A stretch of DNA of 32,000 bases from Bellilinea caldifistulae (GTDB lineage: Bacteria; Chloroflexota; Anaerolineae; Anaerolineales; Anaerolineaceae): contig NZ_LGHJ01000019.1 of assembly GCF_001306055.1 (NCBI RefSeq), forward strand, positions 1 through 32,000, given 5' to 3'. A program made the translations under genes and the position numbers. Shown here one piece after another: positions 6,006 through 21,312 of this stretch. Under the pieces are notes generated by a model. It worked only from the letters and a program-made list of their open reading frames with translations, was not told the origin of the DNA and did not search any database. Position 1 is the first letter of the stretch, and each line of letters starts with the position of its first letter.

Positions 6006-6978
6006 ACCTGCCGTTTGGTTAACTCGACGTATTTACGAGCCTGCGGTTCAAAAAATTTCTACGGTTGCGCAGGTCGAAATCTGGCCGGCGGAGTACCCTC
6101 CTCCGCCGGAAGTCATCTTGGAGAAAGTTCAAGGTCTGGATGGTCTGCTGACGATGTTGACCGACCCCATAACGGCTGCAGTGATTGAAAATGCTCCCCA
6201 TCTCAAAGTCATCAGCCAGATGGCCGTGGGTTTTGATAACATTGACATCCAAGCCGCAACTCGCCATGGAATCCCGGTAGGCCATACCCCCGGCGTGTTG
6301 ACTGAAACCACCGCCGATTTTGCCTGGGCGTTGCTGATGGCAGCCGCTCGGCGGGTTGTCGAAGCCGACCGCGAAGTTCATCAAGGCATCTGGCGGGCGT
6401 GGGGACCGGATGTTCTGACGGGCATGGATGTCCACGGCGCCACCTTAGGCATTATCGGCTTTGGACGGATTGGGAAGGCGGTTGCCCGCCGTGCCCTCGG
6501 TTTTTCAATGAAAGTCCTCTACAACGACCCCAAACGGGATGAACAGGCTGAGAAGGATTTCCGTGTAGAATATCGGAATCTGGATGATCTGCTTCAGGAG
6601 TCGGATTTCATCAGCCTTCACACCTACTACACCCCTCAGTTACATCATCTCATTAATCGCCAGCGTTTTGAGCAAATGAAAGATGGGGCAATTTTGATCA
6701 ATACAGCCCGCGGTGGTCTGGTGGACTACCAGGCTCTTTATTGGGCATTAGAGTCAAAAAAGCTTGCTGCGGCCGCGCTGGATGTCTTTGACCCCGAACC
6801 CATCCCACCCGGTCATCCTTTGTTACACTTTCCCAATCTTATAATCACCCCGCACATTGCCAGCGCCAGCACCCGTACTCGTCAAAACATGGCCCTGATT
6901 GCTGCGGAAAACCTGATTGCCGGATTGCGAGGTGAAAAACTGACTTACTGTGCCAACCCTCAGGTCTACAACGTCTGA
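5998..6978 (+). CDS. D-isomer-specific 2-hydroxyacid dehydrogenase (glyoxylate/hydroxypyruvate reductase-like)
   Basis: ORF 5977..6978. The likely start is ATG 5998 (MNKPAVWLTR), which overlaps the htpG stop (ATGAATAA). An NAD-binding GIIGFGRIGKAVARRA motif and the catalytic R..E..H pattern (NTARGG ... TPHIASAS) are present. Confidence 0.85.
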   Translation: MNKPAVWLTRRIYEPAVQKISTVAQVEIWPAEYPPPPEVILEKVQGLDGLLTMLTDPITAAVIENAPHLKVISQMAVGFDNIDIQAATRHGIPVGHTPGVLTETTADFAWALLMAAARRVVEADREVHQGIWRAWGPDVLTGMDVHGATLGIIGFGRIGKAVARRALGFSMKVLYNDPKRDEQAEKDFRVEYRNLDDLLQESDFISLHTYYTPQLHHLINRQRFEQMKDGAILINTARGGLVDYQALYWALESKKLAAAALDVFDPEPIPPGHPLLHFPNLIITPHIASASTRTRQNMALIAAENLIAGLRGEKLTYCANPQVYNV

Positions 6979-7166
6979 TTAACGCTCAAATTGTGATGAA
7001 AATACCTCAAAAAAGGGATTTTTGTTAACTCAAAATTCGTGATAAATACGGTATCCTTATAACAGTTTGACAGACAACTATGCTCTATTCTGACCTTTGC
7101 CGTTTTTCTTCTTGGGAAGGGAACAGAATTTGAATCTATCATCATATTCTTTCTGGAGGAACACTC

Positions 7167-9278
7167 GTGGACCAAAAAGCTCTGAATGGCTTACTCAGGC
7201 CGAATAAAATTGCGGTGGTGGGGGCCTCTGCAACCCCCGGAAAAATTGGTTATACAGTTGTGAAAAATTTACTGGAAGGCGGTTATCAAGGAAAAATCTA
7301 TCCCGTCAATCCCTCCGCAACAGAAATTCTGGGCTTGAAAGTATATCCTTCCATCCGTGATATCCCTGAAGACATTGACGCTGCCATCATTACCATCCCG
7401 GCAAAGGCAGTACTACCCACCGTTGATGAATTGGGCGCCAAAGGCGCAAAAGGGATGATTGTCATCACCTCCGGCTTCAGTGAAGTTGGTTTGAAAGAAC
7501 TGGAACGCGAACTGGTCGAAAAGGCCAACAGTTACGGTATTCGCGTATTGGGACCGAATATCGTGGGTGTGCTTTCAAATTCTGACAAGATGAACGGTTC
7601 TTTTGCCCCCTTCCTACCTTTGGAAGGTAAGGCTTCACTGGTTTCCCAATCGGGAGCGCTGCTGATTGCCATTGATGCCGCCAGTTATATTCGTCGGGTT
7701 GGTTTTGATAAGCTCATTTCGATCGGCAACATGTCCGATGTGGATTTTGCCGACCTGATTACCTGGCTGAACGAGGATCCCAACACTTCCTGCATTTCTC
7801 TTTACATCGAAGGTTTTCGGGATGGGCGGCGATTTATCGAAGCAGCCCGCAATGCGAATAAACCCATCATCGCTCTCAAAGCGGGTGTTTCAGCGCATGG
7901 CGCAGCTGCTGCTGCCTCGCACACCGGTTCGCTTGCCGGAGCCGCCAAAGTGTATGGGGCTGCTTTCCAGCAGGCCGGCGTGGTTCAGGCAACTGACCTG
8001 AACGATCTGTTCAACCGCACCTTATCCCTCTCCCTGCAACCGCCCATGAAAGGCGATAACTTACTGGTCATCACCAATGGCGGTGGTGTAGGTGTTCTGG
8101 CAACCGACGCCGCAGAAAAATCGGGCGTCCCGCTTAAATTTGCCCCAGCAGATGTGCAGGCTGAGTTAAAGAAGCACATGCCTGAATTTGGCTCGGCCAA
8201 AAATCCGGTTGATCTGACCGGAATGGCCGGGACAGAGTGGTATCAGGCTTCCATCCGCTTTGCCTTTGCCCATCCATGGGTTGACGGTCTGGTTGTTCTC
8301 TATTGTGAAACCGCCATGACTGACCCGCTGGAAATTGCCAAAGGCATCAAAAAAGCCATTGTCGATTCGGGTGTGACCGATAAGCCAGTGACGGTTTCCT
8401 TCGTAGGTGGTGAAAGATCCGAAGAAGCCATGCGCTGGCTGGTTGAAAACGGCATACCGGCTTATGGTGCCCCCGATCTGGCGGTTAACGCCATTGCCGC
8501 CTTGCGTGAATATGCCCGTATGAAAGAAATTGTCCGCGAGGAAGCCATGCCTTGTCTGGCTCAGGATCGAGAGCGTGCCTTGAAGATCATTAACAAAGCT
8601 CGCAGCGAGGGGCGCGACTCGTTGACCGAGATCGAAGCCAAGGAAGTCTTCGAGTGCTACGGTTTACCGGTAACCCCCACCCGCCTGGCGCGCAACGAGG
8701 ACGAGGCTGTGGCTCTGGCTCGCGAAATCGGTTATCCGGTTGTAATGAAAATCGTCTCCCCCGACATCCTCCACAAGTCGGATGCGGGTGGCGTACGGGT
8801 CAACATCAAAGATGATGCTGGCGTTCGCGAAGCCTTCAAAACGATTATGAAGAACGCCAAAGAATACAAGGCAACCGCCAATATTCATGGTATTGCTGTA
8901 CAGGAAATGGCCCCGTGGGGCACCGAGGTCATTCTTGGCTCGGTCAACGATCCAACCTTTGGCCCAACCATGATGTTTGGTCTGGGCGGCATCTTTGTCG
9001 AGGTTCTCAAGGATGTCACCTTCCGTGTTGCGCCGGTGACGTCCAGCCAGGCTTTGCGCATGCTGGACGAGATTCGGGGTGCCCCCATTATTGCTGGTGT
9101 GCGCGGTGAGGCCCCGCGTGACCGTCAGGCGCTGGCTGATGTGATTTGTCAGTACTCGACCATGATTCTCGACCTGGCTGATGAAGTAAGCGAATCGGAC
9201 GCCAATCCCGTCTTGGTTTACGAATCCGGCAAAGGACTGAAAGTGGTGGATGCCCGCATCATCCTCAAGAAAAAATAG
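7167..9278 (+). CDS. Acetate--CoA ligase (ADP-forming) family, fused alpha/beta (CoA-binding + succinyl-CoA-synthetase-like + ATP-grasp domains)
   Basis: GTG start at 7167, preceded by GGAGGA (7155-7160). The N-terminus has the CoA-binding motif IAVVGASATPGKIGYTVVKNL..IYPVNP. The central region contains AAAASHTGSLAG, which includes the phospho-His loop. The C-terminal part is an ATP-grasp domain (GYPVVMKIVSPDILHKSDAGGV). Length is 703 aa. Confidence 0.88.
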   Translation: MDQKALNGLLRPNKIAVVGASATPGKIGYTVVKNLLEGGYQGKIYPVNPSATEILGLKVYPSIRDIPEDIDAAIITIPAKAVLPTVDELGAKGAKGMIVITSGFSEVGLKELERELVEKANSYGIRVLGPNIVGVLSNSDKMNGSFAPFLPLEGKASLVSQSGALLIAIDAASYIRRVGFDKLISIGNMSDVDFADLITWLNEDPNTSCISLYIEGFRDGRRFIEAARNANKPIIALKAGVSAHGAAAAASHTGSLAGAAKVYGAAFQQAGVVQATDLNDLFNRTLSLSLQPPMKGDNLLVITNGGGVGVLATDAAEKSGVPLKFAPADVQAELKKHMPEFGSAKNPVDLTGMAGTEWYQASIRFAFAHPWVDGLVVLYCETAMTDPLEIAKGIKKAIVDSGVTDKPVTVSFVGGERSEEAMRWLVENGIPAYGAPDLAVNAIAALREYARMKEIVREEAMPCLAQDRERALKIINKARSEGRDSLTEIEAKEVFECYGLPVTPTRLARNEDEAVALAREIGYPVVMKIVSPDILHKSDAGGVRVNIKDDAGVREAFKTIMKNAKEYKATANIHGIAVQEMAPWGTEVILGSVNDPTFGPTMMFGLGGIFVEVLKDVTFRVAPVTSSQALRMLDEIRGAPIIAGVRGEAPRDRQALADVICQYSTMILDLADEVSESDANPVLVYESGKGLKVVDARIILKKK

Positions 9279-9340: not shown

Positions 9341-9757
9341 CTTCTGGGTTTGTAAAAGCCGTTGCCAGGCCCCTTTCCAGGGTGTACCAAGGCGGTTACG
9401 CTCAGCCACCTGAATCTTCTGTAATTTTTGAGCAATCCACACAGAAAGCAAAGCAACCTGATTCCAATCCTCGTCCTTTAGAGACTCCAGCATTGCCCGC
9501 CCCAATTGATTGACCCACTCCCACTCCATACGAAATCGCTCAGCCTTGACCCAGTATCCCCGCTTTTCCCATGCCTGAACCGAAATATCAATGGTTTCGC
9601 CAATTTCAATCAAGGCCAGGCCGATAAATGCTGCCAGATCACGAGTATTTTCATCGGCCTGTTCTTGCTTCATCAATTCCCGGATTGCCAGAACAACCCC
9701 TTTGGTCAATTGTGTCCGTTGTTTTCCAGCGCTTTCCGGGTTAATTAAGCGGCTCAT
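9338..9757 (-). CDS. Hypothetical protein (139 aa)
   Basis: ORF 9338..9943. The start is taken at ATG 9757 (MSRLINPESAGKQ...), preceded by GAGGAG. The longer N-terminal extension would run through the tRNA promoter and att region. No domain recognised. Confidence 0.55.
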   Translation of the reverse strand: MSRLINPESAGKQRTQLTKGVVLAIRELMKQEQADENTRDLAAFIGLALIEIGETIDISVQAWEKRGYWVKAERFRMEWEWVNQLGRAMLESLKDEDWNQVALLSVWIAQKLQKIQVAERNRLGTPWKGAWQRLLQTQK

Positions 9758-9875
9758 AGTTCTCCTCGATGAATAAAGATTGGCGCAATTATACCAGCCC
9801 GGCTTCATAGATAGAATAAAAATTCTTGAAAAAGTGAATTTTTCCCCAGCCGTTATACTCTTCAACCGTGATAGG

Positions 9876-9884
9876 TGGTATAAT
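9876..9884 (+). promoter_or_regulatory. Extended -10 promoter (TGGTATAAT), inferred to be the original tRNA-Leu promoter; it now precedes only the truncated 5' tRNA copy and the integrase
   Basis: The TGnTATAAT motif lies 17 nt upstream of the first tRNA-homologous base (9901). It is a motif call only. Confidence 0.5.
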
Positions 9885-9898
9885 TGGCGCGCAAACCA

Positions 9899-9944
9899 GC
9901 GGGGAAGTGCTGGAACTGGCAGACAGGCATGACTTAGGATCATG
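9899..9944. repeat. attL: 46-bp direct repeat, a truncated copy of tRNA-Leu (2 nt of 5' flank plus the tRNA from base 1 through the 3' side of the anticodon stem)
   Basis: GCGGGGAAGTGCTGGAACTGGCAGACAGGCATGACTTAGGATCATG is identical base for base to 17179-17224. The flanking bases differ on both sides (A9898 vs T17178; C9945 vs T17225). Confidence 0.92.
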
Positions 9945-10031
9945 CCATTTGGCTAAGCAAACATTCACCCGTAAATCTGGCGGTATCGCGCATGGCCACC
10001 CCCACAAATACGGCATTTTGGAGGGTGGCTC

Positions 10032-10988
10032 ATGTCTTCTTCAAAAACGCGGCACATTACCCGCACTCATGTTTTTACCTTCGGTTTGGATCACCTCAGC
10101 ACTGCCATTGAAGCCTTCATCATAGATAGGCAATCCAGCGGACTATCTTCCAATACCATCCAGTTTTATCGAAACTGTCTCAGGCGATTTATTGAGTTTT
10201 GCGATAGCCAGGCAATCACCCAAATTGACCAGGTCGCACCGGATACCATCCGGGCTTATCTTTTGTGGCTGGAACAGAACGGCCACAATCCCAGCGGTCG
10301 CCATGCCCATTATCGAAGTCTGCGCGCCTTTATGTTCTGGCTGGAAACTGAATTGGGTGAAGATACTTACCGCGCCCCCATCCGTAAGGTCAAACCGCCT
10401 AAAGTGCCAAAAGAGATTATCGAAGGCGTCAGCCTGGATGACGTTCAACGGATGATTGACGCATGCAAGGGCAACCGCTTTACCGATTTACGGGATAAAG
10501 CCCTTCTGTTTTTCTTGCTGGATGCCGGCACACGCGCCAGCGAAGCCCTTGCCGTTGACCTTGCCGATGTGGACTTTGCCACCGGCGGCGTCCTGATCCG
10601 CAAAGGCAAAGGGAATAAATCCCGCATGGTCTACTTTGGCAAGAATACCCGCCGCGCCATCACCGCTTACCTCAAAAACCGTGAAGATGATCATCCTGCC
10701 CTGTGGGTCAATGAGAAAGGCGAACGCCTTACCCGCTTTGGGCTGGATAAAGTCCTGCGTGTGCGTGCCAAAGAAGCCGGTATCACCAACCCACCCAGCG
10801 CGCATGATTTTCGCCGGGCTTTTGCCCTGAATATGCTACGATCGGGGTGCGACGTGTTCACCCTTCAAAGGCTCATGGGACACAGTGATCTAACCGTCTT
10901 GCGCCGGTATCTTGCCCAGAACGAAAATGACTTACAGCAAGCCCATCAGCGGTTTAGCCCGGTTGAAAATTTGGCAAAGAAAGGATAA
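10032..10988 (+). CDS. Tyrosine recombinase/integrase, XerC/XerD-like (no obvious arm-binding N-domain)
   Basis: An N-terminal SAM-like core-binding domain (AIEAFIIDRQSSGLSSNTIQFYRNCLRRF) is present. The catalytic residues are R in GTRASE, K in KGKGNKSR, HxxR in AHDFRRAF, H in GHSDL and Y in RRYL. GGAGGG (10020-10025) lies upstream of ATG 10032. Confidence 0.92.
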   Translation: MSSSKTRHITRTHVFTFGLDHLSTAIEAFIIDRQSSGLSSNTIQFYRNCLRRFIEFCDSQAITQIDQVAPDTIRAYLLWLEQNGHNPSGRHAHYRSLRAFMFWLETELGEDTYRAPIRKVKPPKVPKEIIEGVSLDDVQRMIDACKGNRFTDLRDKALLFFLLDAGTRASEALAVDLADVDFATGGVLIRKGKGNKSRMVYFGKNTRRAITAYLKNREDDHPALWVNEKGERLTRFGLDKVLRVRAKEAGITNPPSAHDFRRAFALNMLRSGCDVFTLQRLMGHSDLTVLRRYLAQNENDLQQAHQRFSPVENLAKKG

Positions 10989-11139
10989 AACAGCCGGAAT
11001 TTTCCCTCCAGAAAGCCCTAGAAAGCCCGTTCTAGCCTTCACAGGTCATTTGATATGGATTGTCCAAAGAACGGGCAAATTTCGGGCTTTGGTTGCTCAG
11101 TATGGCAGGCATGCCCAAAAAACTGACGTTTTCCTGAAC

Positions 11140-11538
11140 CTAGTCCGTAGGCGGTTCAGCCTGCGCCGCAGCCTCATCAATCCTGCGTTCAAGGTCGGTA
11201 ATCCGGGCTTCCAATTCAACCGCATTCCGAAAACGCAAGACGGCATCCAGTACTGTTTTAGCAGCCGCAAGCCGTGCGCCCGGTAGTCGGCGGTCGGTCA
11301 CAAGGTCGGACAACGCATCAAGCGCGCCGCTCTGCATACTGAGCAGCCTCCGCATGGCTTCTTCCAGCAACCCACTTTCTGCCTCTTGCAAGGCTTCACG
11401 GAAGGCCGGCTGCCGCAGCCAGCGGTAAGCGGTCTTTTCGCCGATACCGCACTTATGCGCCGCCTCCCGTGCGCTTTTACTGGTCAGCAGGGCTTGAAGA
11501 AAGCGTTTTTGCCTTGCGGTTAGGTCGTTTCGGGTCAT
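11140..11538 (-). CDS. Small HTH protein with terminase-small-subunit-like layout (132 aa)
   Basis: LTARQKRFLQALLTSKSAREAAHKCGIGEKTAYRWLRQPAFREALQE, followed later by ARLAAAKTVLD, follows the pattern of Terminase_2-type TerS N-termini (L-x-x-KQ-x-F...A-A-x-x-AG-x-x-x-x-TA-x-x...P-x-V-x-x-x-I). The assignment is by recalled motif similarity, not by a search. Confidence 0.55.
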   Translation of the reverse strand: MTRNDLTARQKRFLQALLTSKSAREAAHKCGIGEKTAYRWLRQPAFREALQEAESGLLEEAMRRLLSMQSGALDALSDLVTDRRLPGARLAAAKTVLDAVLRFRNAVELEARITDLERRIDEAAAQAEPPTD

Positions 11539-11758
11539 CTTCTGTCATCCTGACATACTGGCGCAATTGCCAGCGGTCAAAATGGATTGTACCAGCAAAC
11601 AATCGCACCAGGTAGCCAAACGTCACCAGCGCCGCCGTGACTTCCGCATCCGTTGCGCCTTCCAATGCCAGCCGGAAGCGGGCAAGGTCGAAATCCCGCC
11701 GCACTTCCGGCGGCAGGTTGGCCAGAAGGTCGGCAAGCGGAAGTTCGCGGTAGTTCAT
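11477..11758 (-). CDS. Hypothetical protein (93 aa), element-encoded
   Basis: ORF 11477..11800. ATG 11758 (MNYRELPLADLL) overlaps the TGA stop of the upstream gene as ATGA, suggesting translational coupling. Its 3' end overlaps the next gene by 62 nt. No recognisable domain. Confidence 0.45.
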   Translation of the reverse strand: MNYRELPLADLLANLPPEVRRDFDLARFRLALEGATDAEVTAALVTFGYLVRLFAGTIHFDRWQLRQYVRMTEDDPKRPNRKAKTLSSSPADQ

Positions 11759-12540
11759 TCTACCCAAACAACATTCTCGCCTTCTGGTGAAGGCATCCAC
11801 AGCGGGATAGGCGTCCGTGAGGGTTCATGGTCACGGCAGCGGGTGATTGCGGTCAGCGCCTGGCTGAAGGCGGTTTGCATCCGTTGAAGCCCAACCTCCA
11901 CCTCCTGCCATTTGGCGGCGATTTTCTTCTCCCGGTCGCTCATGAAGCGTTCTTCCGCCTGGTCAATCGCCTTGTGCATGTCCGCAACAGCAGCATCGAA
12001 GCCCGTCAGCCCGTGCTTTGCCTGATACCAGGCCGGATATCCCTCACGCAACACCCGGCAATCTTTGCGGTCGGTCACGGTCAGCAGAATTTCTGGCAAG
12101 GAACGCCCGGCATTCAACAAAGTTTCAAATTGCGGCCAGCGGCGCAAAGCGTAAGCCTGGAACACCGATTCATCCTGCGGGTTCGCCGCCGTGCGCTCTT
12201 CTTGAAGTTTTGCGAAAGCCTGATTGCCAAGTTCCTGAATGCGCCCATGCCACAGGTGGAGCACCTCAACGGCTTCATCCACAATCAGATTACAAGCAGC
12301 AGCGGAAACGGACGGGTCAAGCCCGGCCTTGCGCATTTGACGCACACCCTCAAAGGCCAGCGTCACGATTTCAGCGATTGGCTCATGCACCTGACGCAGT
12401 TCATAAATTGGATTTTCAACGGTAACACCTGCTTGAATGCGTAAACCGTTGAAATCACTCGTAACACGGCGCGGCAGATAGCGCCGGGCAATGTCCGCCA
12501 GTTCAGCGGGAGTATAGTAAACAGCAGGCTGATTAGCCAT
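11755..12540 (-). CDS. Hypothetical protein (261 aa), element-encoded
   Basis: This long ORF has AGGAG upstream of ATG 12540 and its own TGGTATAAT promoter. No domain recognised. The + strand ORFs 11827..12444 and 12018..12425 are antisense shadows. Confidence 0.6.
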   Translation of the reverse strand: MANQPAVYYTPAELADIARRYLPRRVTSDFNGLRIQAGVTVENPIYELRQVHEPIAEIVTLAFEGVRQMRKAGLDPSVSAAACNLIVDEAVEVLHLWHGRIQELGNQAFAKLQEERTAANPQDESVFQAYALRRWPQFETLLNAGRSLPEILLTVTDRKDCRVLREGYPAWYQAKHGLTGFDAAVADMHKAIDQAEERFMSDREKKIAAKWQEVEVGLQRMQTAFSQALTAITRCRDHEPSRTPIPLWMPSPEGENVVWVE

Positions 12541-12590
12541 TTCTCACACTCCTATAGAAAATATGTTTTGCGAACGGGTGTTCTGTATTC

Positions 12591-12599
12591 ATTATACCA
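12591..12599 (-). promoter_or_regulatory. Extended -10 promoter (TGGTATAAT on the minus strand) for the 261-aa/93-aa/TerS-like gene block
   Basis: The reverse complement of 12591-12599 is TGGTATAAT. A TTGGGC -35-like hexamer lies 16 nt upstream, and the motif sits about 50 nt upstream of ATG 12540. Confidence 0.45.
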
Positions 12600-12654
12600 C
12601 CGAACACTTTTTGCCCAACATAATACGCATTGTCTTGGGCATCCTCACCGGTCG

Positions 12655-12900
12655 TCAGCCGGTCTTGGACGGGTCACCTCCCGTATACGGCGCAATTTTC
12701 GCCAGAAGTTCAAGGCAATCGCCTTCGCTCAGGTCAGGTACAGCCTCCTGAAGCCGCCGCACCTGGTCAAGGATTGCGGGCCGGTCAAGGGCATCCAACC
12801 GGTAAAATGCCCGGTACAGCGGATGAAGCCGCTCAATTTGCTTGCGGTCGAGTTCCATCACCGCAAGAAGCGACAAAGGCGGGCAGTAGTCACCGGTCAT
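12655..12900 (-). CDS. Hypothetical protein (81 aa), element-encoded
   Basis: ORF 12655..12993. The start is taken at ATG 12900 (MTGDYCPPLSLL), which overlaps the end of the upstream gene by 11 nt. No domain recognised. Confidence 0.45.
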   Translation of the reverse strand: MTGDYCPPLSLLAVMELDRKQIERLHPLYRAFYRLDALDRPAILDQVRRLQEAVPDLSEGDCLELLAKIAPYTGGDPSKTG

Positions 12901-13270
12901 TTGTTCGCTCCATCGCCAACCGCAAGAGTTCATCAGCCACCGTTGGAACATCCGCCAGCGGCACAGCGGGTAAGGTGATCCCATCCCGGCCAAACATATA
13001 AAACTTGCCGTGCTTCAGATACTTGCGCCCAATGGCCCGCAAAGCCTCCTGTTCAGTATCGGAAAAGTATCTTCCGGCCGGAAAGGTGTCAAAGTGGATA
13101 CGAGCATATTTCCGCCGTGCCGTTACCCGCAAATAGGGCATCCGGTTTGCCTTGCAAAAATGCCAAAAAGCATTCAAAACCGGCAAAGGCGTACCTTCCC
13201 GCGCAACGATATAGCCAGTTTCGCAGGCTTGCTCAAAGATTTGTTTGTATCTGCCCCGTAGTGTGGTCAT
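12890..13270 (-). CDS. Hypothetical protein (126 aa), element-encoded
   Basis: ORF 12890..13405. The start is taken at ATG 13270 (MTTLRGRYKQIF), with GGAGG 7 nt upstream. The longer version would read through the repeat field. No domain recognised. Confidence 0.5.
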   Translation of the reverse strand: MTTLRGRYKQIFEQACETGYIVAREGTPLPVLNAFWHFCKANRMPYLRVTARRKYARIHFDTFPAGRYFSDTEQEALRAIGRKYLKHGKFYMFGRDGITLPAVPLADVPTVADELLRLAMERTNDR

Positions 13271-13292
13271 TCCTAACCTCCGATCTTGACTT

Positions 13293-13400
13293 GGTGACGA
13301 AGGGTGACGAGAAAATGGCGTTTTTTGATTTTTCCCCCTTAAGTGGTCACTTAAGAAAGAAAACTTGAAAAGTGGCCTTTTCTCGTCACCTCTCGTAACC
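13293..13400. repeat. Iteron/palindrome field: candidate replication origin or operator cluster of the element
   Basis: Tandem 10-mers GGTGACGAAG GGTGACGAGA (13293-13312) face the inverted tandem TCTCGTCACC TCTCGTAACC (13381-13400), with 17/20 matches as an inverted repeat and a 13-bp perfect core GGTGACGAGAAAA / TTTTCTCGTCACC. Between them lie a T-rich tract (13321-13333) and the palindrome CTTAAGTG-GT-CACTTAAG (13338-13355). The field is immediately downstream of the replicase stop at 13402. Confidence 0.6.
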
Positions 13401-13401
13401 G

Positions 13402-15552
13402 TCATACTCCAATCCCTTTGAAAAACTTTCCGTTCTTTCTCACTTCGCGTTCAAAACCATGTGCCACCATGAGTTTTGAGAATAACTGAATGGACTTCAC
13501 CGCCTGCGGGACGCCGTTTAAGCGGCAGTGCTGCTCATAGGTGGCGAATAAGTCGCTTGCCTTTGTCTCAAGTCGCGGGTCGAGTTTACAGGTCGCCAGA
13601 AAATCGGCCAGTGGGTCGCTGTCCGCGCGCCAGGCTTCGGCGGCTTGAACGCACTGCGGCGGCGGGTTCAGCCCTTCCCGCTGGTAAGCCAGACAGCCTT
13701 CCAATGCCCAATTCAGGATACCGGGCAGTTCGGCTTGAAGTTTTGCCCTCAGGTTCTTGTCTTGATTTTGTCCCTCAAAGCGCGCAAGGAATGGGATCAG
13801 CACCACCCGCCGCCAGAACGCAGGTGAAACGTCCCGCACCTTTGGCAGGTCGTTCGCCGCCAAAAATAACTTGAATTGCGGCATGTAGGTTCTCTCGTGT
13901 TCGTGCTTTCGCGATCCCGTTACCGGGTCTTGACCGGTAACCAGTTTCAAAACCGCCTCATTCAGTGTGCCAACCGTCGAAGTTTCTACAGCAACCACCA
14001 GCCGCGCGCCCTCCAACGCCATCAGGCTTTCCTGGTGGCCGCCTTTGTTCGGGTCAGTGGTAAAGGTTGAAAAACTGGTGCTTTTGGCACAGTCCCCCAG
14101 CGCGGCGCGCAGGGTATCAAGCAACGTAGATTTCCCGTTCAGCCCCCGCGCCCCGTGACAGAAGAAAAACACCTGTTCACGGGTAAGGCCGGTTAGGGTA
14201 TAACCAACCGCCCGTTGGATGAAGGTAATCATTTCCTGGTCATCCAGGAAGACTTCCCTCAAAAACTGCTCCCAACGCGGCGCTTTGGCTTGCGGGTCGT
14301 AATGCGTCCCGGCGCATTGGGTCAGGTAATCATCCGGCTGACCTTCCCGAAAGTCCCCCGTTTCCAGGTCTACAATGCCATTCTGCACAGCCAGCAGTAA
14401 AGGTTTTTGATCAAATTTCCTGCCGCTTTTGGCCAGGTTCGGGCGGCTCTTGGCAATTTCCAGCATCGAACGCAGACGATACCCGTTTTCTGAATTCAGT
14501 AAAAACGTCATCGTTTTCTTCCGCAAGTCGGCATCTTGAATGCCGAACGCCTGTGCCTGCCGCTCCCGGATGGCTTCCAGCGCCAAACGTTCAACCGCGC
14601 CATCGTCATCTGTCACCCACACCGGCGAACGGAAGACATACCAGCGGCGGGTATCATGCCGATAGCAGATTTGTTTCTCGTGTCGGTCGCCAAAAAATTC
14701 AGCATTGCCGGCATCGGTCAAGGCATAGCCTGGTTGATAACGACATACTGATTGAGCAATCCGGGTGACTTCGGCATCATCCAGCGGCGGCTGGCACTGT
14801 GCCTGATTAAGTACCCTCAATGCTGCCAAAATCGCGGGTTCATCCATCCCCGCCCGGCGCATCCGCCCGGCCTCACTGGTCAGCCAGGTGTTCCGTTGCC
14901 CTTGTAACACCTTTCCGCCCTGTGCCTGCTGCCCCTGTGGCTTGTGTCCGTTCGGCGTGCTTTGCCCGGCGGTAAGCAGGTTCAGCAACCATCCGGGCAG
15001 GTCGGCGGGTTCGTCATTTTCCGGGTCAGAGGACGCTTCCCAAACATAGGCATTCCCGCTTGAATGAATTGACGGCGGCGCAACCACAAAACCGCCATCG
15101 GCGCGAATGTCCAAACCGGGACCAAGCGCACCGGCGGAAGATTTTAGGTATTGAACACCCGCCGGGTATTTGAAGTACAAGTGCCGCCCACCGCCGCCGG
15201 TCAAGGATTCAAGGGTGGCAGGTAACCGCCCGAATTTGGCTTCAAGATCAAGCAAGGTTGCGTCCCCGTCATGTCGCGGGTCAACGTCCAGCACCACTAA
15301 ACCACTTTCGCACCCGGTCGCAATGCCTACGTTGGCTTCAGGTTGCATCGTCCACCAGACCGCGATTTGGTCAAGATCAATGGTGGCATCCTTGAAGCCA
15401 CGCGGGACAAGCGCGCCGATCGGGTGCTTGCCAGGTGATTGACAATTAGGGTTGCCACAGGTACAGCACCCATTATGCACCGAATGCACCGGAAAAACGC
15501 GCCAGCCGCGCAAGGAATACGTCACAAGTTCAGTTATCGAGATTGTGTTCAT
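13402..15552 (-). CDS. Bifunctional primase-polymerase (PrimPol) fused to a P4/D5-type SF3 helicase (phage/plasmid primase, P4 family)
   Basis: The N-terminus reads GWRVFPVH...CQSPGKHP...ANVGIATG..SGLVVLDVDPRHDG...GGGGRHLYF, which carries the PrimPol DxD and sGGG-H motifs. The C-terminal half has the Walker A motif HGARGLNGKSTLLD and a D5_N/P4-type NTPase region. Length is 716 aa. Confidence 0.9.
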   Translation of the reverse strand: MNTISITELVTYSLRGWRVFPVHSVHNGCCTCGNPNCQSPGKHPIGALVPRGFKDATIDLDQIAVWWTMQPEANVGIATGCESGLVVLDVDPRHDGDATLLDLEAKFGRLPATLESLTGGGGRHLYFKYPAGVQYLKSSAGALGPGLDIRADGGFVVAPPSIHSSGNAYVWEASSDPENDEPADLPGWLLNLLTAGQSTPNGHKPQGQQAQGGKVLQGQRNTWLTSEAGRMRRAGMDEPAILAALRVLNQAQCQPPLDDAEVTRIAQSVCRYQPGYALTDAGNAEFFGDRHEKQICYRHDTRRWYVFRSPVWVTDDDGAVERLALEAIRERQAQAFGIQDADLRKKTMTFLLNSENGYRLRSMLEIAKSRPNLAKSGRKFDQKPLLLAVQNGIVDLETGDFREGQPDDYLTQCAGTHYDPQAKAPRWEQFLREVFLDDQEMITFIQRAVGYTLTGLTREQVFFFCHGARGLNGKSTLLDTLRAALGDCAKSTSFSTFTTDPNKGGHQESLMALEGARLVVAVETSTVGTLNEAVLKLVTGQDPVTGSRKHEHERTYMPQFKLFLAANDLPKVRDVSPAFWRRVVLIPFLARFEGQNQDKNLRAKLQAELPGILNWALEGCLAYQREGLNPPPQCVQAAEAWRADSDPLADFLATCKLDPRLETKASDLFATYEQHCRLNGVPQAVKSIQLFSKLMVAHGFEREVRKNGKFFKGIGV

Positions 15553-15922
15553 CGTCGCCGTCCCAAAGTTCTAACTGCACCGCATTTGCCAAACCGATAA
15601 TCTTCACCGCCCGGCGGACGGTTCGCGCTTTCCATTGCTTCACCGCTTCCGGCGCAGGGTCAAGCCAGTAGCCGCTTCCCCCCTTCGCCGTGCTTGATAA
15701 AATCGGGTATCCTGCCCGGCGTAGGGCTTCAATCCGCGCCCGCAGTTCTCGCTCCGAACAGCCCCGCGCTGCGGCAAGGTCGGTCATGCTGATTTTTTCT
15801 CCCGCAGGTAATTGACGCAAAATGTTCACAAGTGTATAATCCAAATAGCGAACGCTGCCCCGCGTTCTCAAGCCTTGCCCGCCGCCGCCAACGGCGGGTT
15901 CTGTTTTGTTAGTTTTGTCCAT
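15530..15922 (-). CDS. Winged-helix HTH DNA-binding protein (HTH_11/BirA-N-like), element-encoded
   Basis: ISMTDLAAARGCSERELRARIEALRRAGYPILSS..GYWL is a typical wHTH. Its 3' end overlaps the primase start by 23 nt. Confidence 0.65.
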   Translation of the reverse strand: MDKTNKTEPAVGGGGQGLRTRGSVRYLDYTLVNILRQLPAGEKISMTDLAAARGCSERELRARIEALRRAGYPILSSTAKGGSGYWLDPAPEAVKQWKARTVRRAVKIIGLANAVQLELWDGDDEHNLDN

Positions 15923-16103
15923 GCTGCACCTCAGCCCCGCTTGCGTTTTCTTTGGTTTTCTCTTCGCTTTGCTTTTTTTGAAACGACTTTGAAAGTTCCC
16001 GGCGAATGACCGCTGAAGGCGTTAGGAATTCGGTTTCAGCCCGCCGCTGGACTTCTTCCCAAAGCCAGCCGGGAAGCCGGATTGCAAAAATTTTTTGGGA
16101 CAT
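15909..16103 (-). CDS. Ribbon-helix-helix (CopG/Arc-like) regulator, 64 aa
   Basis: ORF 15909..16196. The start is taken at ATG 16103 (MSQKIFAIRLPGWLWEEVQRRAETEFLTPSAVIRRELSK, a beta strand followed by two helices as in RHH proteins). AGGAG lies 7 nt upstream. It is the first gene of the leftward operon and overlaps the next gene by 14 nt. Confidence 0.7.
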   Translation of the reverse strand: MSQKIFAIRLPGWLWEEVQRRAETEFLTPSAVIRRELSKSFQKKQSEEKTKENASGAEVQHGQN

Positions 16104-16117
16104 AGGACATCTCCTAA

Positions 16118-16210
16118 AACGGTAATTATTTGAAATACCGTTACTATAATACGATATATTACAACGATTGACAACAATAAAAAAATCTGTTATCATTTTT
16201 TTACCGTTAC
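16118..16210. promoter_or_regulatory. Divergent back-to-back promoters with three TACCGTT operator copies (genetic switch of the element)
   Basis: The rightward promoter is TTGACA (16168-16173), 17 nt, then TATCAT (16191-16196). The leftward promoter is TTGTCA (complement of 16169-16174), 17 nt, then TATTAT (complement of 16146-16151). The two -35 hexamers overlap. Operator-like sites are AACGGTA (16118-16124) inverted against TACCGTTAC (16136-16144), plus a third TACCGTTAC (16202-16210) at the predicted rightward transcription start. Confidence 0.6.
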
Positions 16211-16238
16211 ATAAACCTTAAAAAATTGGAGATTTCCC

Positions 16239-16952
16239 ATGCAAGGACATGCTCAACTGGTTTATCCCCGTTCCTGGACACGCGGCAAGCCCACATTGAA
16301 AGGTGATTACATCACCATCAGCCAGCCTGAAGAGTATCAGCCTTACGAATGTGCCAATCTGGTATTTGACTTTTCCGGCTTACGGACGCCAAAGGACGTT
16401 ACCGCTTTTGTCGGCCAGTACGGACTTTTGAAACGTACTGAAGGGCTTGAAAAAGTCACGGACATTTTGGCGGAAGCGGCGGCAGTAAGGCTTTTGTTCC
16501 AAATGGTGATTGCCATCCGCAGGGTAGATACTTCTTTCCTGCGGGACATTTGGCAAATTTCGGACTTTGCCAAACTGTTTGAAGCCCCTCCGAAAGATGA
16601 TGATGAATTACTGGCTCAAGCCTCCGTGCTTGTAGCATGGACTATCAACGAAAACCTTGCGGGCGTCCCTCACGGTCTCATCCCTGAAGCGGCATTTGAA
16701 GTGGACGGCGTCAGCGGGTCGCCAGGTATTTTTCTTTGGGTGGCTTATCCCGATAATCTGCTTCAATACATTTACTATCAACTGGCAATGACTATAAACC
16801 TGAAAACTCCGCTTGCTTCATGCACCGAATGCGGAAGGATTTTCAAGGTCGAGCATGGCAATCAGGAATATTGCTCCAGCCGTTGCTCCAACCGGGCAAG
16901 AATAAGACGCTTCCGAGAAAAACGGCAGCCAGGTCAAAAACAGCCGCAATGA
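16239..16952 (+). CDS. Element-encoded protein with C-terminal CGNR-type zinc-ribbon-like motif (237 aa); N-terminal domain unknown
   Basis: GGAG lies 7 nt upstream of ATG 16239. The C-terminus, CTECGRIFKVEHGNQEYCSSRCSNRARIRRFR, resembles the zf-CGNR pattern C-x2-C...F....WC-x3-CGNR-x-K. This is recognised by motif, not by a search. Confidence 0.6.
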   Translation: MQGHAQLVYPRSWTRGKPTLKGDYITISQPEEYQPYECANLVFDFSGLRTPKDVTAFVGQYGLLKRTEGLEKVTDILAEAAAVRLLFQMVIAIRRVDTSFLRDIWQISDFAKLFEAPPKDDDELLAQASVLVAWTINENLAGVPHGLIPEAAFEVDGVSGSPGIFLWVAYPDNLLQYIYYQLAMTINLKTPLASCTECGRIFKVEHGNQEYCSSRCSNRARIRRFREKRQPGQKQPQ

Positions 16953-16989
16953 ATAGCAGCCGCCGATCAAAACGTGCTAAATCTCCCCC

Positions 16990-17017
16990 TTGTCACATTG
17001 TGACAACCCGCTATAAT
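16990..17017 (+). promoter_or_regulatory. Element-borne sigma70-like promoter (TTGTCA-16-TATAAT) overlapped by the perfect palindrome TTGTCAC-ATT-GTGACAA; points at the rebuilt tRNA-Leu
   Basis: The -35 hexamer is at 16990-16995, the -10 at 17012-17017 and the palindrome at 16990-17006. No other convincing promoter motif is visible between here and the tRNA 5' end at 17181. Confidence 0.5.
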
Positions 17018-17178
17018 TGTGCTAGCGTCAACGGGTTATTTACACCCAATCTTAAAAAATCAACCGCAAAAATGGGCTTTTACGGCACATGATTAGCCCA
17101 TTTTGCGGGCGGCGGGTGGCAAAAAAGCACCGCCATATCTGGCTTAAAACGGGCAAAAAACGCCCATTAAGCCAAAAT

Positions 17179-17224
17179 GCGGGGAAGTGCTGGAACTGGC
17201 AGACAGGCATGACTTAGGATCATG
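17179..17224. repeat. attR: 46-bp direct repeat forming the 5' part of the intact tRNA-Leu
   Basis: Identical to 9899-9944. Confidence 0.92.
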
Positions 17225-17262
17225 TGCCGAAAGGCGTGCGGGTTCAAGTCCCGCCTTCCCCA
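17181..17262 (+). tRNA. tRNA-Leu, anticodon TAG (class II, long variable arm), no encoded CCA
   Basis: Folded by hand. The acceptor stem is GGGGAAG/CTTCCCC. The anticodon stem is CATGA/TCATG with loop CTTAGGA, placing the anticodon at 17215-17217. The variable arm is TGCCGAAAGGCGT, the T arm is GCGGG-TTCAAGT-CCCGC, and the discriminator is A17262. Confidence 0.9.
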
Positions 17263-17288
17263 CTCAAATTAAAATTCTTTAAACAAGG

Positions 17289-18737
17289 ATGATCAAGTTG
17301 AAACTCGAAATCCAACCCCGAGATGACCATCAGGTCAATGTGATTGCTGAATTTGAGACCGAACTTTTAGAGCAATTCAAACGCCGTTCAGCGCGAAAAA
17401 TTGCAGAAAAAACCCGTATCCCCGGTTTTCGCCCCGGCAAGGCACCTTATGACGTTGTGCGTCGGGTCGTGGGAGAAGAAGCTCTAATCGAGCAAGCTAT
17501 TGAAGACTTGATTGATGAATACTATCCAAAAATTTTGGAAGAAGCCAGCCTCAAACCCGGCGCAGCCGGTAATTTAGAAAAAATCCTCAGTTTGGACCCG
17601 CCAAAATTTTCCTTCCTCGTCCCGTTAGAGCCGGAAGTTGACTTAGGCAATTACAAAGATATTCGTCTGGAATATTCCCCGCAGGCCGTTGAAGAACAAG
17701 AAGTAACCGACTTCCTCAAGCGTTTGCAAACGAATTACGCCACGGCTGAACCGGTTGACCGCCCTGCTCAGGAAGGTGACTTGGTTTACATCAAATTTTC
17801 CGGAAAATTGACGCACCCCGCCGAAGGAGAGGACGAGATGGTTTTTCCGGAACGGCCAGCTCAATTCATTTTGGGCAGCGATTTGATGGAGAACCGCTCT
17901 TTCCCGTTTCCCGGCTTTTCCGAAAATTTGACTGGTAAAAAAGAAGGCGATGCTTTCACCCTCACCTACACCTTCCCGCAAGACGAGAAGGATGAAGCCC
18001 TGCGTGGTAAAGAGGTCGAGTTTCAAGTGACCGTGCAGAGCGTCAAATCGCTGATCTTGCCTGAACTCAATGACGAATTCGCCCAGACTATCGGTCAATT
18101 TGAAACATTGGAAGACCTTAAGAAGGCAATTCGTGAGCAGTTAGAAAATGCAAAAAAAGAAGAGGCCGATGAAACCTTTTTCAATCAACTTTTCGAACGG
18201 CTGCAAGCCCAAGCAACCATCAAATACCCGCCTCAGGTACTGGAACATGAGATTGAACATTTGTTGGAGGACTTCCAGCACGATTTGAGCCGACAGGGGA
18301 TGGAACTGGACACTTATCTCAAGATGGTCAATAAAGACCGTGAAACCTTCATTCGAGAAGAACTCGAACCGATTGCCCGCCGCCGGCTTGAACGTTCGTT
18401 GATCATGGAAAAATTCGCCGACGTGGAACAAATCAAAATTGACGAAACCAATTATCAGCAGGCCATTCAAGACTCATTGCGTGATTTGCAATCCATGCCA
18501 ATGGACAAAAAACCCACAAAGGCTGAACAAAACCAACTCACCCAAGAGGTATTGATTTACAATATCAATCGCAGGCTGAATCAAATGATCCTGAATCGGA
18601 TGAAAGCCATTGCTACCGGACAAGCTTTGGAAGAACAACCTGCCGAACAAGGCCTCGCCAGCGAATCCTCAACCGAGTCTGATTCCGGTAACGAGCCTGT
18701 TCAGGAAGAGAATCAGGACGCGCCTGCTGAGGAATAG
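17289..18737 (+). CDS. tig: Trigger factor (ribosome-associated PPIase chaperone)
   Basis: A trigger factor N-domain with the ribosome-binding motif ([14 protein letters not shown]), a central FKBP-like region and an acidic C-terminal tail are present. It lies directly upstream of clpP. The start could instead be TTG 17298, which is better spaced from AAGGA. Confidence 0.9.
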
Positions 18738-20223: not shown

Positions 20224-21312
20224 ATGGTTGAAAAAGAACCGCCCTCTCTAAAACCACTGATTTACGATCTCGATTATACCGATCTCGAGAATCTGGTCAG
20301 AGATTGGCAGCAGCCTTCGTTTCGTGCTCGTCAGATTTGGGAAGGCTTGTATCAAACATACTGGCGTAATCCCGAAGAATTTACCAACCTGCCGCTTTCT
20401 TTGAGACAAAGGTTGGCAGATAGTTTTCGGTTCATTTCATTAGAACCCATTCAAATCCTCCATTCCTCCGATCGGGAAACCATCAAAACGCTCTTCCAAT
20501 TACCGGATGGATGAGCAATCGAAGCAGTATTGATGAAGTATGAGAAACGCCGCACGTTGTGTATCTCCACACAATCGGGCTGTGCGATGGGCTGCGTGTT
20601 TTGTGCTACGGGTCAAATGGGATTCAAGCGGAATTTGACCAGCGGTGAAATTGTCGAACAGGTTATTTATTACGCAAACCTGCTTCGCCGGGAAGGCGAA
20701 TCGGTCACCAATATCGTCTTAATGGGTATGGGCGAGCCTTTCCATAACTACGATGCCACCATGGCCGCCATAGACCGGCTCAATCACCCATTGGGCATGA
20801 ATTTAGGGGCGCGAAGGTTTACCATCTCAACCGTAGGACTGGTACCCATGATCCGCCGTTTTGCCGCAGAACAAAGACAGATTAATCTGGCTATCAGCCT
20901 GCATGCAGCCGATGACGAGCTACGCACCTCAATGCTGCCAGTTAACAAAAAATACCCGCTCAGCGAATTGATGGCAGCCTGTCGGGATTATGTTGCCCAA
21001 ACCCACCGCCGCCTCACCTTTGAATGGGCATTAATCCAGAATGTGAATGATTCCGTTGAAACCGCCCGCAAACTCGCCCGGCTTTTGGAAGGTTTGTTGT
21101 GTCATGTCAATGTCATTCCCCTGAACCCCACACAAAAATACGCTGGAAAAGGAAGTACACGCGAGCGTGCCCTGGCGTTCAAGGCCGAATTGGAACGCCA
21201 TGGTGTTCCCTGCACCATCCGCATCCGGCGCGGTATTGATATTCAGGCTGGCTGCGGTCAGCTGGCAATTCAACAAGCCCAAAACTCCCCTTCCAATCCC
21301 CTTATGATATAA
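20224..21312 (+). pseudogene. rlmN: 23S rRNA/tRNA (adenine-C2)-methyltransferase RlmN (radical SAM), interrupted by one in-frame TGA at 20512-20514
   Basis: ORFs 20224..20514 and 20530..21312 are in the same frame. The reading across the stop is ...[48 protein letters not shown], a continuous RlmN motif block (DG-x-IE-x-V...CxxxCxxC). This may be a true nonsense mutation, a sequencing error or readthrough. Confidence 0.7.

Follow-up and report, generated by a model that had tools for sequence, protein, structure and literature searches.

What occupies the tRNA-Leu(TAG) gene upstream of the trigger factor gene (tig) in Bellilinea caldifistulae (Anaerolineae, Chloroflexota), and how does it pass from host to host? 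The window, by which we mean the whole 32-kb stretch of DNA that was analyzed (record DF967971.1), contains a 7.28-kb element between two direct repeats. An earlier reading of this DNA, hereafter the original prediction, described it as a compact tRNA-Leu-integrated element organized like a phage satellite. Our analysis points to an intact, recently mobile, and self-replicating integrative element that is most likely a minimal phage satellite resembling the phage-inducible chromosomal islands (PICIs), and we place the probability of this reading slightly above one-half (roughly 0.55). Because the element encodes a protein of the phage-packaging type, it probably rides in the particles of another phage.

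Boundaries, empty site, and movement of the element

As originally described, the element is bracketed by a perfect 46-nt direct repeat (9899-9944 = 17179-17224) with a spacing of 7,280 bp. The right-hand copy overlaps tRNA-Leu(TAG) (17181-17263, forward strand), which is the only tRNA in the window, and an Rfam scan matched nothing but this tRNA. The GC content of the element is 53.7%, compared with 50.2% in the flanks and at most 50.8% in all equally long flanking windows, so the enrichment first noted by eye is real and modest. The order and sizes of its open reading frames (ORFs) agree with an independent gene call; in order, the products are an integrase of 318 aa (forward strand), proteins of 132, 93, 261, 81, and 126 aa (reverse strand), then, past a field of repeats, proteins of 716, 130, and 64 aa (reverse strand) and one of 237 aa (forward strand; Table 1).

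The original prediction had called for a search for the unoccupied site in related genomes. When a genome collection was scanned for tRNA-Leu(TAG), 120 loci were recovered, 83 of them informative Chloroflexota loci, and in 28 of these 83 the order of a 139-aa gene, tRNA-Leu, and tig is uninterrupted. One such empty site, in Bellilinea sp. KatS3mg047 (locus L091), has the 139-aa gene, promoter, whole tRNA-Leu, and tig in one contiguous arrangement, with tig 96% and the 139-aa protein 90% identical to those of the window. When the element is removed from the window (9601-9944 joined to 17225-17600), the remaining sequence aligns colinearly across the L091 junction. The Islander approach to tRNA-integrated islands looks for an intact tRNA gene with a co-oriented displaced fragment (upstream of the gene when it is a 5′ fragment), for a tyrosine integrase gene within the interval, and for an empty site in a relative (PMC4383910). 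In the window, the 5′ fragment lies upstream of the intact tRNA-Leu gene in the same orientation, the gene for a tyrosine integrase is inside (Table 1), and L091 supplies the empty site.

Copies of the element occupy the same site in a Thermanaerothrix metagenome-assembled genome (L009) and in the isolate Thermanaerothrix sp. 4228-RoL (L144). Among genes with a homologue, the encoded proteins are 84-97% identical to those of the window in L009 and 67-97% in L144, and at the nucleotide level most of the element is 90-100% identical in the window and L009. The host genes of L009 and L144 have diverged far more from those of the window (tig 39% and the flanking 139-aa protein 49% identical). A near-identical element in hosts with only 39% tig identity indicates that the element itself has moved recently.

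The copies also differ from one another in blocks. Positions 15900-16900, which hold a ribbon-helix-helix (RHH) gene, a divergent promoter switch, and the gene for the 237-aa protein, are unrelated between the window and L009; there, an unrelated 200-aa protein, whose N terminus looks by eye like a helix-turn-helix (HTH) domain, replaces the 237-aa protein, and a different RHH-like gene is present. L144 keeps the regulatory block of the window type (237-aa protein 93%, RHH protein 89% identical) and has an unrelated 222-aa helical protein in place of the 261-aa gene, the rest of the element being near-identical. On the evidence of these alignments, the block swaps are best read as mosaic exchange in an active population and not as decay, and the exchange of the 237-aa and 200-aa proteins appears to be a module swap of the immunity type. 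Based on the comparison of these loci, we conclude that the element is intact, integrative, and recently mobile. The mobile-element part of the original prediction is thus fully supported by the empty site in L091, by near-identical copies in distant hosts, and by the circular relative described below; the attachment site (att) that uses the tRNA's 5′ half had not been noticed.

Within Chloroflexota, the tRNA-Leu(TAG)-tig locus serves as a general hotspot for integration. At L074, a 5′-half tRNA fragment is found 3.1 kb upstream of the tRNA, together with an integrase remnant. At L088, L092, and L106, an integrase 47-53% identical to that of the window is encoded divergently from the tRNA, and the primase matches as well in two of the three. 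About 4.4 kb are inserted between tRNA and tig at L121. At L010, the stretch 13078-16308, between the tRNA-Leu promoter and the host homologue of the 139-aa gene, encodes a 1,076-aa NACHT/nSTAND1 protein and carries a 150-aa gene; it may be a separate, defense-type insertion beside the same hotspot.

Packaging-type genes, the family of relatives, and competing explanations

Scans against Pfam, PHROGs, and NCBIfam found no capsid, portal, large terminase, tail, lysis, relaxase, or type IV secretion genes in the element, as had been predicted. The protein that bears most directly on how the element travels is the 132-aa product, which had been called a small terminase (TerS)-like HTH protein. 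It matches nine PHROG families, eight of which are annotated as TerS, and many of its homologues have the PF03592 domain and are named terminase small subunit. Its AlphaFold model (mean predicted local distance difference test score (pLDDT) 79.7) consists of a three-helix HTH domain and two helices of ∼40 residues that form a long helical hairpin, which is the TerS architecture of an HTH followed by long oligomerization helices. The top Foldseek matches of this model are 2ao9 (phBC6A51; probability 0.98, template-modeling (TM) score ∼0.5), which has been treated as a small terminase, 7joq, and 3hef; the small terminases of NV1 and Sf6 are among them. When 50,697 phage records were searched, 13 of the 24 matches, including the best, were to Streptococcus satellite phages (31-38% identical, E-values down to 1e-12).

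The 261-aa protein serves as the hallmark of a family to which the element belongs. A search of 5.8 billion clusters returned 18 homologues, and all those with a named source come from Anaerolineae; when 1.84 billion representative proteins were searched with a profile, 12 were found. The search of metagenomes for relatives, which had also been proposed, yielded five loci of the 261-aa family. The protein is 77-89% identical in relatives whose integrases are ∼50% identical, and its gene always lies between the 81-aa-type gene and the TerS-like gene, in elements of 6.6-8.0 kb. Structure prediction, suggested earlier for the ORFs without recognizable function, gave an all-helical model of high confidence (pLDDT 89.9), which includes a C-terminal hairpin and has no known structural match: against PDB and BFVD, Foldseek returned nonspecific helical bundles alone (E ≥ 0.04, TM ≤ 0.29). 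A highly conserved and confidently folded protein with no structural relative in these collections is of interest in its own right.

The family members, of 6.6-8.0 kb, differ in their replication modules, which consist either of a primase-polymerase (PrimPol) fused to a superfamily 3 (SF3) helicase or of a DnaG-type or PrimPol primase with a separate helicase. One distant member (L013; hallmark profile E = 7e-38) has a 30-nt terminal overlap that makes it a circle of 7,845 bp, with genes for an integrase, an excisionase-type HTH_17 protein, a D5_N primase, the hallmark homologue, and a TerS-like protein. Judged by this overlap, L013 is a closed circular form of a distant relative.

In three other relatives (L003, L007, and L012), the 93-aa and 132-aa genes are replaced by a gene for a 163-aa HTH protein and a split large terminase (TerL), in which a 247-aa ATPase gene and a 218-aa nuclease gene overlap by 13 nt (L003 5578-6965, L007 5397-6784, and L012 11315-12664). 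L003 and L007, the two complete copies, agree exactly in these lengths and in the overlap; the second gene of L012 is cut by the contig end. The ATPase part matches phrog_7579 at 1.7e-69 and shares 52% identity with the product named "terminase, ATPase subunit" in Meiothermus phages MMP7 and MMP17 and with the TerL of Thermus phage Riverbug, so the split terminase seems to be native to that phage lineage. These three TerL-bearing 8-kb relatives have no capsid or portal genes, and an element of 8 kb that has a terminase and neither portal nor capsid can use only the capsids of another phage. From these comparisons, the family appears to be rare, confined to Anaerolineae, and previously undescribed, and its members are minimal, probably satellite, integrative replicons.

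As a separate observation, L012 and L002, which lacks a large terminase, come from one assembly (GCA_034436795.1), and each abuts a copy, whole or partial, of one and the same tRNA-Leu(TAA). Between the anticodon region and the 3′ end, the two tRNA copies do not differ, which fits a tandem array of two elements broken by the assembly.

These data suggest how the element could work as a satellite. The divergent switch would control a single 5-kb leftward operon, with the RHH gene first, and the gene for the 237-aa CGNR-like protein on the rightward side. The operon would supply the winged-helix protein and the PrimPol-helicase, which would fire a predicted iteron origin just downstream of its own gene. 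Its last genes, for the 81-aa, 261-aa, 93-aa, and TerS-like proteins, form a conserved module. Once the element has excised and replicated, the TerS-like protein would recruit the large terminase and capsids of a helper phage to the element DNA, and we propose the 261-aa helical protein as a factor that interacts with the helper. The satellite-like logic of the original prediction thus gains from the TerS-like protein, from the TerL-bearing relatives, and from the putative origin directly after the primase-helicase gene; it loses from viral collections without relatives, and the support is real but indirect.

Several observations weigh against a satellite. No helper phage has been identified for the family, and homologues of AlpA, Stl, Sid, Psu, and Cpm are absent from the element proteins in the three scans named above. 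No large terminase is encoded in the window element, beside the 132-aa gene or elsewhere. The 132-aa protein scores 20.3 bits against Pfam Terminase_2 (PF03592), under the cut-off of 26.1, and the Foldseek E-values of its model are weak (0.14-0.8), so it could be an HTH regulator or a recombination directionality factor. The TerS-like call therefore stands on family matches, homologue annotation, fold, and satellite-phage matches and falls short on these two scores. The 261-aa protein has no match in the 50,697 phage records, the viral contigs of IMG/VR contain no relatives of the primase or the 261-aa protein, and a TerS profile run against viral collections found two weak small contigs and nothing more. 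The promoters were assigned by consensus matches alone. Last, a plasmid of Thermaerobacter sp. FW80 has an integrase gene and encodes a 42%-identical primase, so that this replication-integration core can also be that of an ordinary small plasmid.

The alternative that survives best, which we nevertheless regard as unlikely, is that of a small integrative plasmid that needs no helper, a reading that the original prediction had also mentioned: it would excise, replicate from the PrimPol-helicase origin as a 7-kb circle, and reintegrate, with the TerS-like protein acting as an HTH regulator or excision directionality factor and with spread by transformation, vesicles, or mobilization in trans. 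It is in keeping with this that the closest relative of the primase in plasmid databases is the isolate-derived, circular FW80 plasmid of ∼6.9 kb, that L013 assembles as a circle, that viral collections gave no matches, that the Pfam matches of the TerS-like protein are mostly to generic HTH families, and that its gene sits beside the integrase gene, a frequent place for directionality factors. A plasmid does not explain why a true phage large terminase, whose sole known role is to package DNA into capsids, is encoded by relatives that share the backbone and hallmark genes. Nor does it account for the TerS families, architecture, and Streptococcus satellite homologues of the 132-aa protein, and besides its TerS-like gene L013 possesses an excisionase-type HTH_17 gene of its own.

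An integrative mobilizable element that hitchhikes on a conjugative system through a cryptic origin of transfer, with no relaxase of its own, is improbable. The element is compact, half of its genes are without assigned function, and an integrase plus replication core is common to many such elements; against this, no relaxase, coupling protein, or type IV secretion signature appears in Pfam, PHROGs, or NCBIfam, and the terminase modules of the family point to capsids and not to conjugation. Still less probable is a miniature autonomous temperate virus with the 261-, 126-, 93-, and 81-aa products as its structural proteins. In its favor, the 261-aa protein is highly conserved and has a confident fold without a match, and helical capsid proteins exist in some viruses; yet terminase packaging needs a portal and an HK97-type capsid, for which there is neither room nor signal, no match was found in viral structure or sequence collections, and the exchange of this gene for that of the unrelated 222-aa helical protein in L144 is unlike the behavior of a major capsid protein. 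A decaying prophage remnant or fixed, immobile island is very improbable, for the repeats are perfect, all ORFs are intact, the same compact size recurs in at least six independent relatives, and the spread between distant hosts and the module exchange described above speak for movement.

Taking these points together, we favor the minimal satellite. Three of the strains that harbor family members are in culture (Bellilinea caldifistulae, Anaerolinea thermolimosa, and Thermanaerothrix sp. 4228-RoL), which makes excision, replication, and packaging directly testable.

Gene content, attachment sites, and the predicted exchange of promoters

Table 1. Features of the element and of its junctions with the host chromosome (positions are those of the window)
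Feature	Position	Strand	Evidence or description
Predicted native host promoter of tRNA-Leu	9876-9884	+	Extended −10, TGGTATAAT
attL	9899-9944	+	Displaced copy of the tRNA-Leu(TAG) 5′ half; starts 2 nt upstream of the tRNA and stops where the anticodon stem ends
Xer-like tyrosine integrase, 318 aa	10032-10988	+	PF00589 at 1e-34 and SAM-like N-terminal domain
Small-terminase-like HTH protein, 132 aa	11140-11538	-	phrog_2538 (TerS) at 2e-8; overlapped by the 93-aa gene
93-aa protein without family match	11477-11758	-	Gene overlaps that of the TerS-like protein; the two are conserved together
Hallmark protein, 261 aa, all-helical	11755-12540	-	AlphaFold model; homologues in Anaerolineae
81-aa protein without family match	12655-12900	-	Upstream of the 261-aa gene family-wide
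126-aa protein without family match	12890-13270	-	Tied to the PrimPol-type replication module
Candidate replication origin	13293-13400	.	Two GGTGACGA iterons 10 bp apart, 72-bp AT-rich spacer with a palindrome, two inverted iterons
Replication protein, 716 aa (P4 alpha family)	13402-15552	-	PF09250 at 2e-45, PriCT_1, PF08706 (D5_N) at 2e-29, DUF5906/SF3 helicase
Winged-helix HTH_11 protein, 130 aa	15530-15922	-	PF08279 at 29.1 bits (cut-off 25)
Arc/CopG-like RHH protein, 64 aa	15909-16103	-	phrog_6506 (Arc-like repressor) at 7.5e-5, weak; first gene of the leftward operon
Predicted divergent promoter switch	16136-16210	.	Leftward TTGTCA-17-TATTAT, rightward TTGACA-17-TATCAT
237-aa protein, C-terminal CGNR-like zinc ribbon	16239-16952	+	PF11706 at 21.3 bits (cut-off 24, just under)
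Predicted outward element promoter	16990-17017	+	TTGTCA-16-TATAAT, 11/12 consensus positions; faces attR, tRNA-Leu, tig, and clpP
Leader, element promoter to tRNA	17018-17178	+	Conserved, strongly folding
attR and rebuilt intact tRNA-Leu(TAG)	17179-17263	+	Contains the repeat 17179-17224; tRNA at 17181-17263; tig 25 nt downstream

The gene assignments in the original prediction held when tested against profile collections. The best NCBIfam models for the integrase beside attL are XerA, XerD, and XerC, all under their own cut-offs, and the protein is 94% identical in L009 and L144 and 81% in L010. The PrimPol-SF3 helicase scores 250 bits against TIGR01613 (cut-off 109) and matches phrog_1156 at 3e-135. 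The calls of a winged-helix and an RHH protein were borne out as well, the first above its cut-off and the second by a weak match. The CGNR zinc ribbon proposed for the 237-aa protein was recovered as a match just below the threshold; this protein is a candidate maintenance regulator.

Four exact copies of GGTGACGA are present in the 32 kb, three of them (13293, 13303, and 13383 on the reverse strand) in the predicted iteron field, where a one-mismatch copy at 13393 (reverse strand) completes the second pair. The spacer between the pairs has a GC content of 36%, and positions 13301-13500, which cover most of the field, are 100% identical in L009. This arrangement, immediately 3′ of the primase-helicase gene, is a putative replication origin, and its layout matches that of the origins of Staphylococcus aureus pathogenicity islands (SaPIs). 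The 126-aa protein is 91-93% identical in L009 and L144 and is absent from relatives with other replication modules.

The AT-rich divergent switch was likewise recovered. Its two predicted promoters stand back to back at 16146-16196 in a stretch (16104-16238) with a GC content of 27%, and the switch is bracketed by the only two exact copies of TACCGTTAC in the window.

The 93-, 261-, 81-, and 126-aa proteins, described earlier as without recognizable function, have no family in Pfam, PHROGs, NCBIfam, or PADLOC, and PDB sequence searches with the 126-, 93-, and 81-aa proteins found nothing. The 93-aa protein is 86% identical in L009, 75% in Anaerolinea thermolimosa (L143), and 66% in L010. The 81-aa protein is 75-90% identical in L144 and L009 and 47-48% identical to the product of the syntenic gene of L002, L003, and L007. 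It had been suggested that any defense or interference function would sit in these four ORFs, and this is unsupported: PADLOC gave no match for a defense function except a weak WYL-like one to the winged-helix protein.

The attachment sites have an unusual geometry that mirrors the common one. The intact tRNA-Leu gene lies at the end of the element far from the integrase gene, 7.3 kb from its native promoter, and the repeat is its 5′ half. L009 and L144 have the same arrangement, with 45-nt 5′-half repeats, and the repeat of each copy is that of its own host, whose tRNA in L009 and L144 differs from the Bellilinea tRNA at three positions. [quoted passage not shown] The 5′-type and 3′-type repeats overlap in CTTAGGATCATG alone, which places the crossover in the anticodon loop or its 3′ stem strand, the classical position. 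Other relatives use the 3′ halves of other tRNAs: tRNA-Pro(GGG) in L143 (repeat spacing 7,626 bp), tRNA-Leu(TAA) in L002 and L012, and, as inferred from contig ends, tRNA-Arg(TCT) in L003.

Two further candidates at the attachment sites were rejected. A vestigial 3′ half of the tRNA at 9945-9977, the 33 nt after attL, would have been a relic of an ancestor whose attP held a complete tRNA; the stretch aligns locally no better than shuffled sequences do (3574/5000 and 1741/5000 reach the score). Motifs of the CCGCCATAT type recur by eye near the att arms of relatives, but the short pattern is not enriched in the window (12 matches versus 12.5 expected).

The same geometry predicts an exchange of promoters. 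The TGGTATAAT motif stands directly before the intact tRNA at the empty sites of L091 and L068. In the window, this putative native promoter now reads into the 5′ tRNA fragment and then toward the integrase gene, 88 nt past attL, and no terminator-like site was found between promoter and gene. At the other end, the predicted outward promoter is kept in L009, L144, and the 3′-type sister L010. Its −35 box lies inside a perfect palindrome, TTGTCACATTGTGACAA (16990-17006; TTGTCAC-ATT-GTGACAA), which is identical in L009 and L144; because it is unchanged even though L009 has a different regulatory module, any factor that binds it is probably not the CGNR-like protein. Since only 25 nt separate the tRNA-Leu gene from the start of tig, which leaves no space for a tig promoter, tRNA-Leu, tig, and clpP would be read from the element promoter in a lysogen. 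The far end of L010 also bears this outward promoter and the leader, so the promoter predates the flip of the attachment site. On the circle, transcription from it would cross attP and enter the integrase gene.

Between this promoter and the tRNA, the core of the leader (17024-17180; 157 nt) is predicted to fold into four hairpins at -55.8 kcal/mol (z = -4.84 versus shuffled sequences). The leader is without a family match in Rfam and is conserved in L009, L144, and partly L010, four sequences too alike for a covariation test. The stretch could serve as attP arm DNA, as an RNA, or as both.

Based on these features, the Xer-like integrase would recombine attP with the anticodon loop of tRNA-Leu(TAG). 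After integration, the host tRNA promoter and the 5′ tRNA fragment would read into the integrase gene, and a working tRNA would be rebuilt at the far end behind the outward promoter, which would also drive tig and clpP. Such an arrangement would show how an element can compensate for cutting the tRNA-tig-clpP transcription unit, and sister elements that share one anticodon-loop crossover and use opposite halves of the tRNA offer a clean case for the evolution of attP identity blocks. According to a review, rebuilt bacterial tRNA genes retain their original promoter "with very few exceptions" (PMC8371274); these few bacterial exceptions make the 5′-half arrangement rare but not unprecedented.

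A more far-reaching synthesis can be put forward tentatively, although we consider it rather doubtful as a whole. The elements would be the first phage satellites of Chloroflexota, a minimalist 7-8-kb family with interchangeable packaging cassettes (TerS only, or TerS with a split TerL of the Meiothermus/Thermus-phage type); the 261-aa protein would be a new all-helical fold that captures or reshapes helper capsids; and integration would deliberately swap promoters, with tRNA-Leu, trigger factor, and ClpP transcribed under the control of the element and the integrase gene under that of the host tRNA promoter. If this were so, the 5′- and 3′-half att variants within one integrase clade would be a natural experiment on flips of the att identity block.

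Outside the element, rlmN is present in the window (20224-21312) as two ORFs 15 nt apart, of 96 aa (RlmN_N) and 260 aa (Radical_SAM), and is a single gene of 346-355 aa in the hosts of L009, L010, and L144. The split could reflect a frameshift, a pseudogene, or a sequencing error.

Comparison with known systems

Phages of Anaerolineae are barely known, and to our knowledge descriptions of phage satellites do not yet extend to Chloroflexota; a literature search of full texts, incomplete in its coverage, found no paper that links the two.

The closest resemblance among plasmids is to Thermaerobacter sp. FW80 plasmid unnamed2 (NZ_CP037897.1), a small circle with a tyrosine integrase gene, a P4-family primase 42% identical over 98% of its length, and a similar gene order with a 259-aa gene after the primase; its integrase is just 30% identical. 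The 259-aa and 136-aa proteins of this plasmid were considered as homologues of the 261-aa and TerS-like proteins on account of their matching positions, and no homology was detectable. In the FW80 record (L136), three coding sequences are repeated with identical protein accessions (20-1056 and 6906-7942), and the record ends in a partial integrase gene. The 8,456-bp "complete" circle is thus probably over-assembled, with a real unit of ∼6.9 kb.

In the use of a 5′ half, the attachment geometry works as it does in archaeal pTN3-like elements, for which such sites are typical, whereas they are seldom seen in bacteria (PMC8371274). The integrases of the pTN3 group are of the SSV-type, "suicidal" kind, with the gene split by integration; in the window, in contrast, the integrase gene, 88 nt from attL, is intact and attP lies outside it. 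Also unlike the pTN3 elements, the sister element, with its integrase 81% identical, takes the 3′ half of the tRNA whose 5′ half is used in the window.

With satellite P4, the element shares a tRNA-Leu target and the alpha-type primase family (TIGR01613), and P4 behaves as an integrated element or as a plasmid, which is what we propose here. P4 restores the 3′ part of its tRNA, whereas the element restores the 5′ half, and P4 has no TerS. Scans of the ten element proteins against Pfam and PHROGs found no homologues of P4 sid, psu, delta, cos, or vis. To judge from these comparisons, the element is not P4-like beyond its primase family and its tRNA-Leu target.

[quoted passage not shown] Like the element, they are integrative, 6-8 kb long, built on integrase, regulator, and primase, and free of capsid-remodeling genes (PMC10803314), and a packaged concatemer of the PICMI style is plausible for the element. 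Unlike them, the element has no alpA, uses a tRNA and not the fis site, and has a TerS-like gene, and its family carries TerS-like or TerS plus TerL modules, which places it outside the PICMIs.

The closest parallels are with the PICIs, of which the SaPIs are the prototype and the Streptococcus "Javan" satellites a further example. Like the element, PICIs have an integrase gene at one end, a divergent switch, and a primase-helicase gene with an iteron origin immediately downstream (predicted here), and they have no capsid, tail, or lysis genes. At the distal end of their long operon, PICIs carry a small-terminase gene, and in the element this position is taken by the gene for the 132-aa protein, a candidate small terminase. 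The differences lie in size, as the element has 7.28 kb and its relatives 6.6-8.0 kb, about half of the ∼10-15 kb usual for PICIs, and in regulation, as the divergent promoters are accompanied by RHH, HTH_11, and CGNR-like proteins and there are no homologues of AlpA, Stl, Cpm, or Ppi. They also lie in the Chloroflexota host, in the Xer-like integrase with its 5′-half tRNA attachment site, and in the 261-, 81-, and 93-aa genes, which are not known from other systems. Membership among the PICIs therefore fails on size and on the AlpA/Stl regulators, and of the known systems it is the PICIs whose logic that of the element most closely follows.

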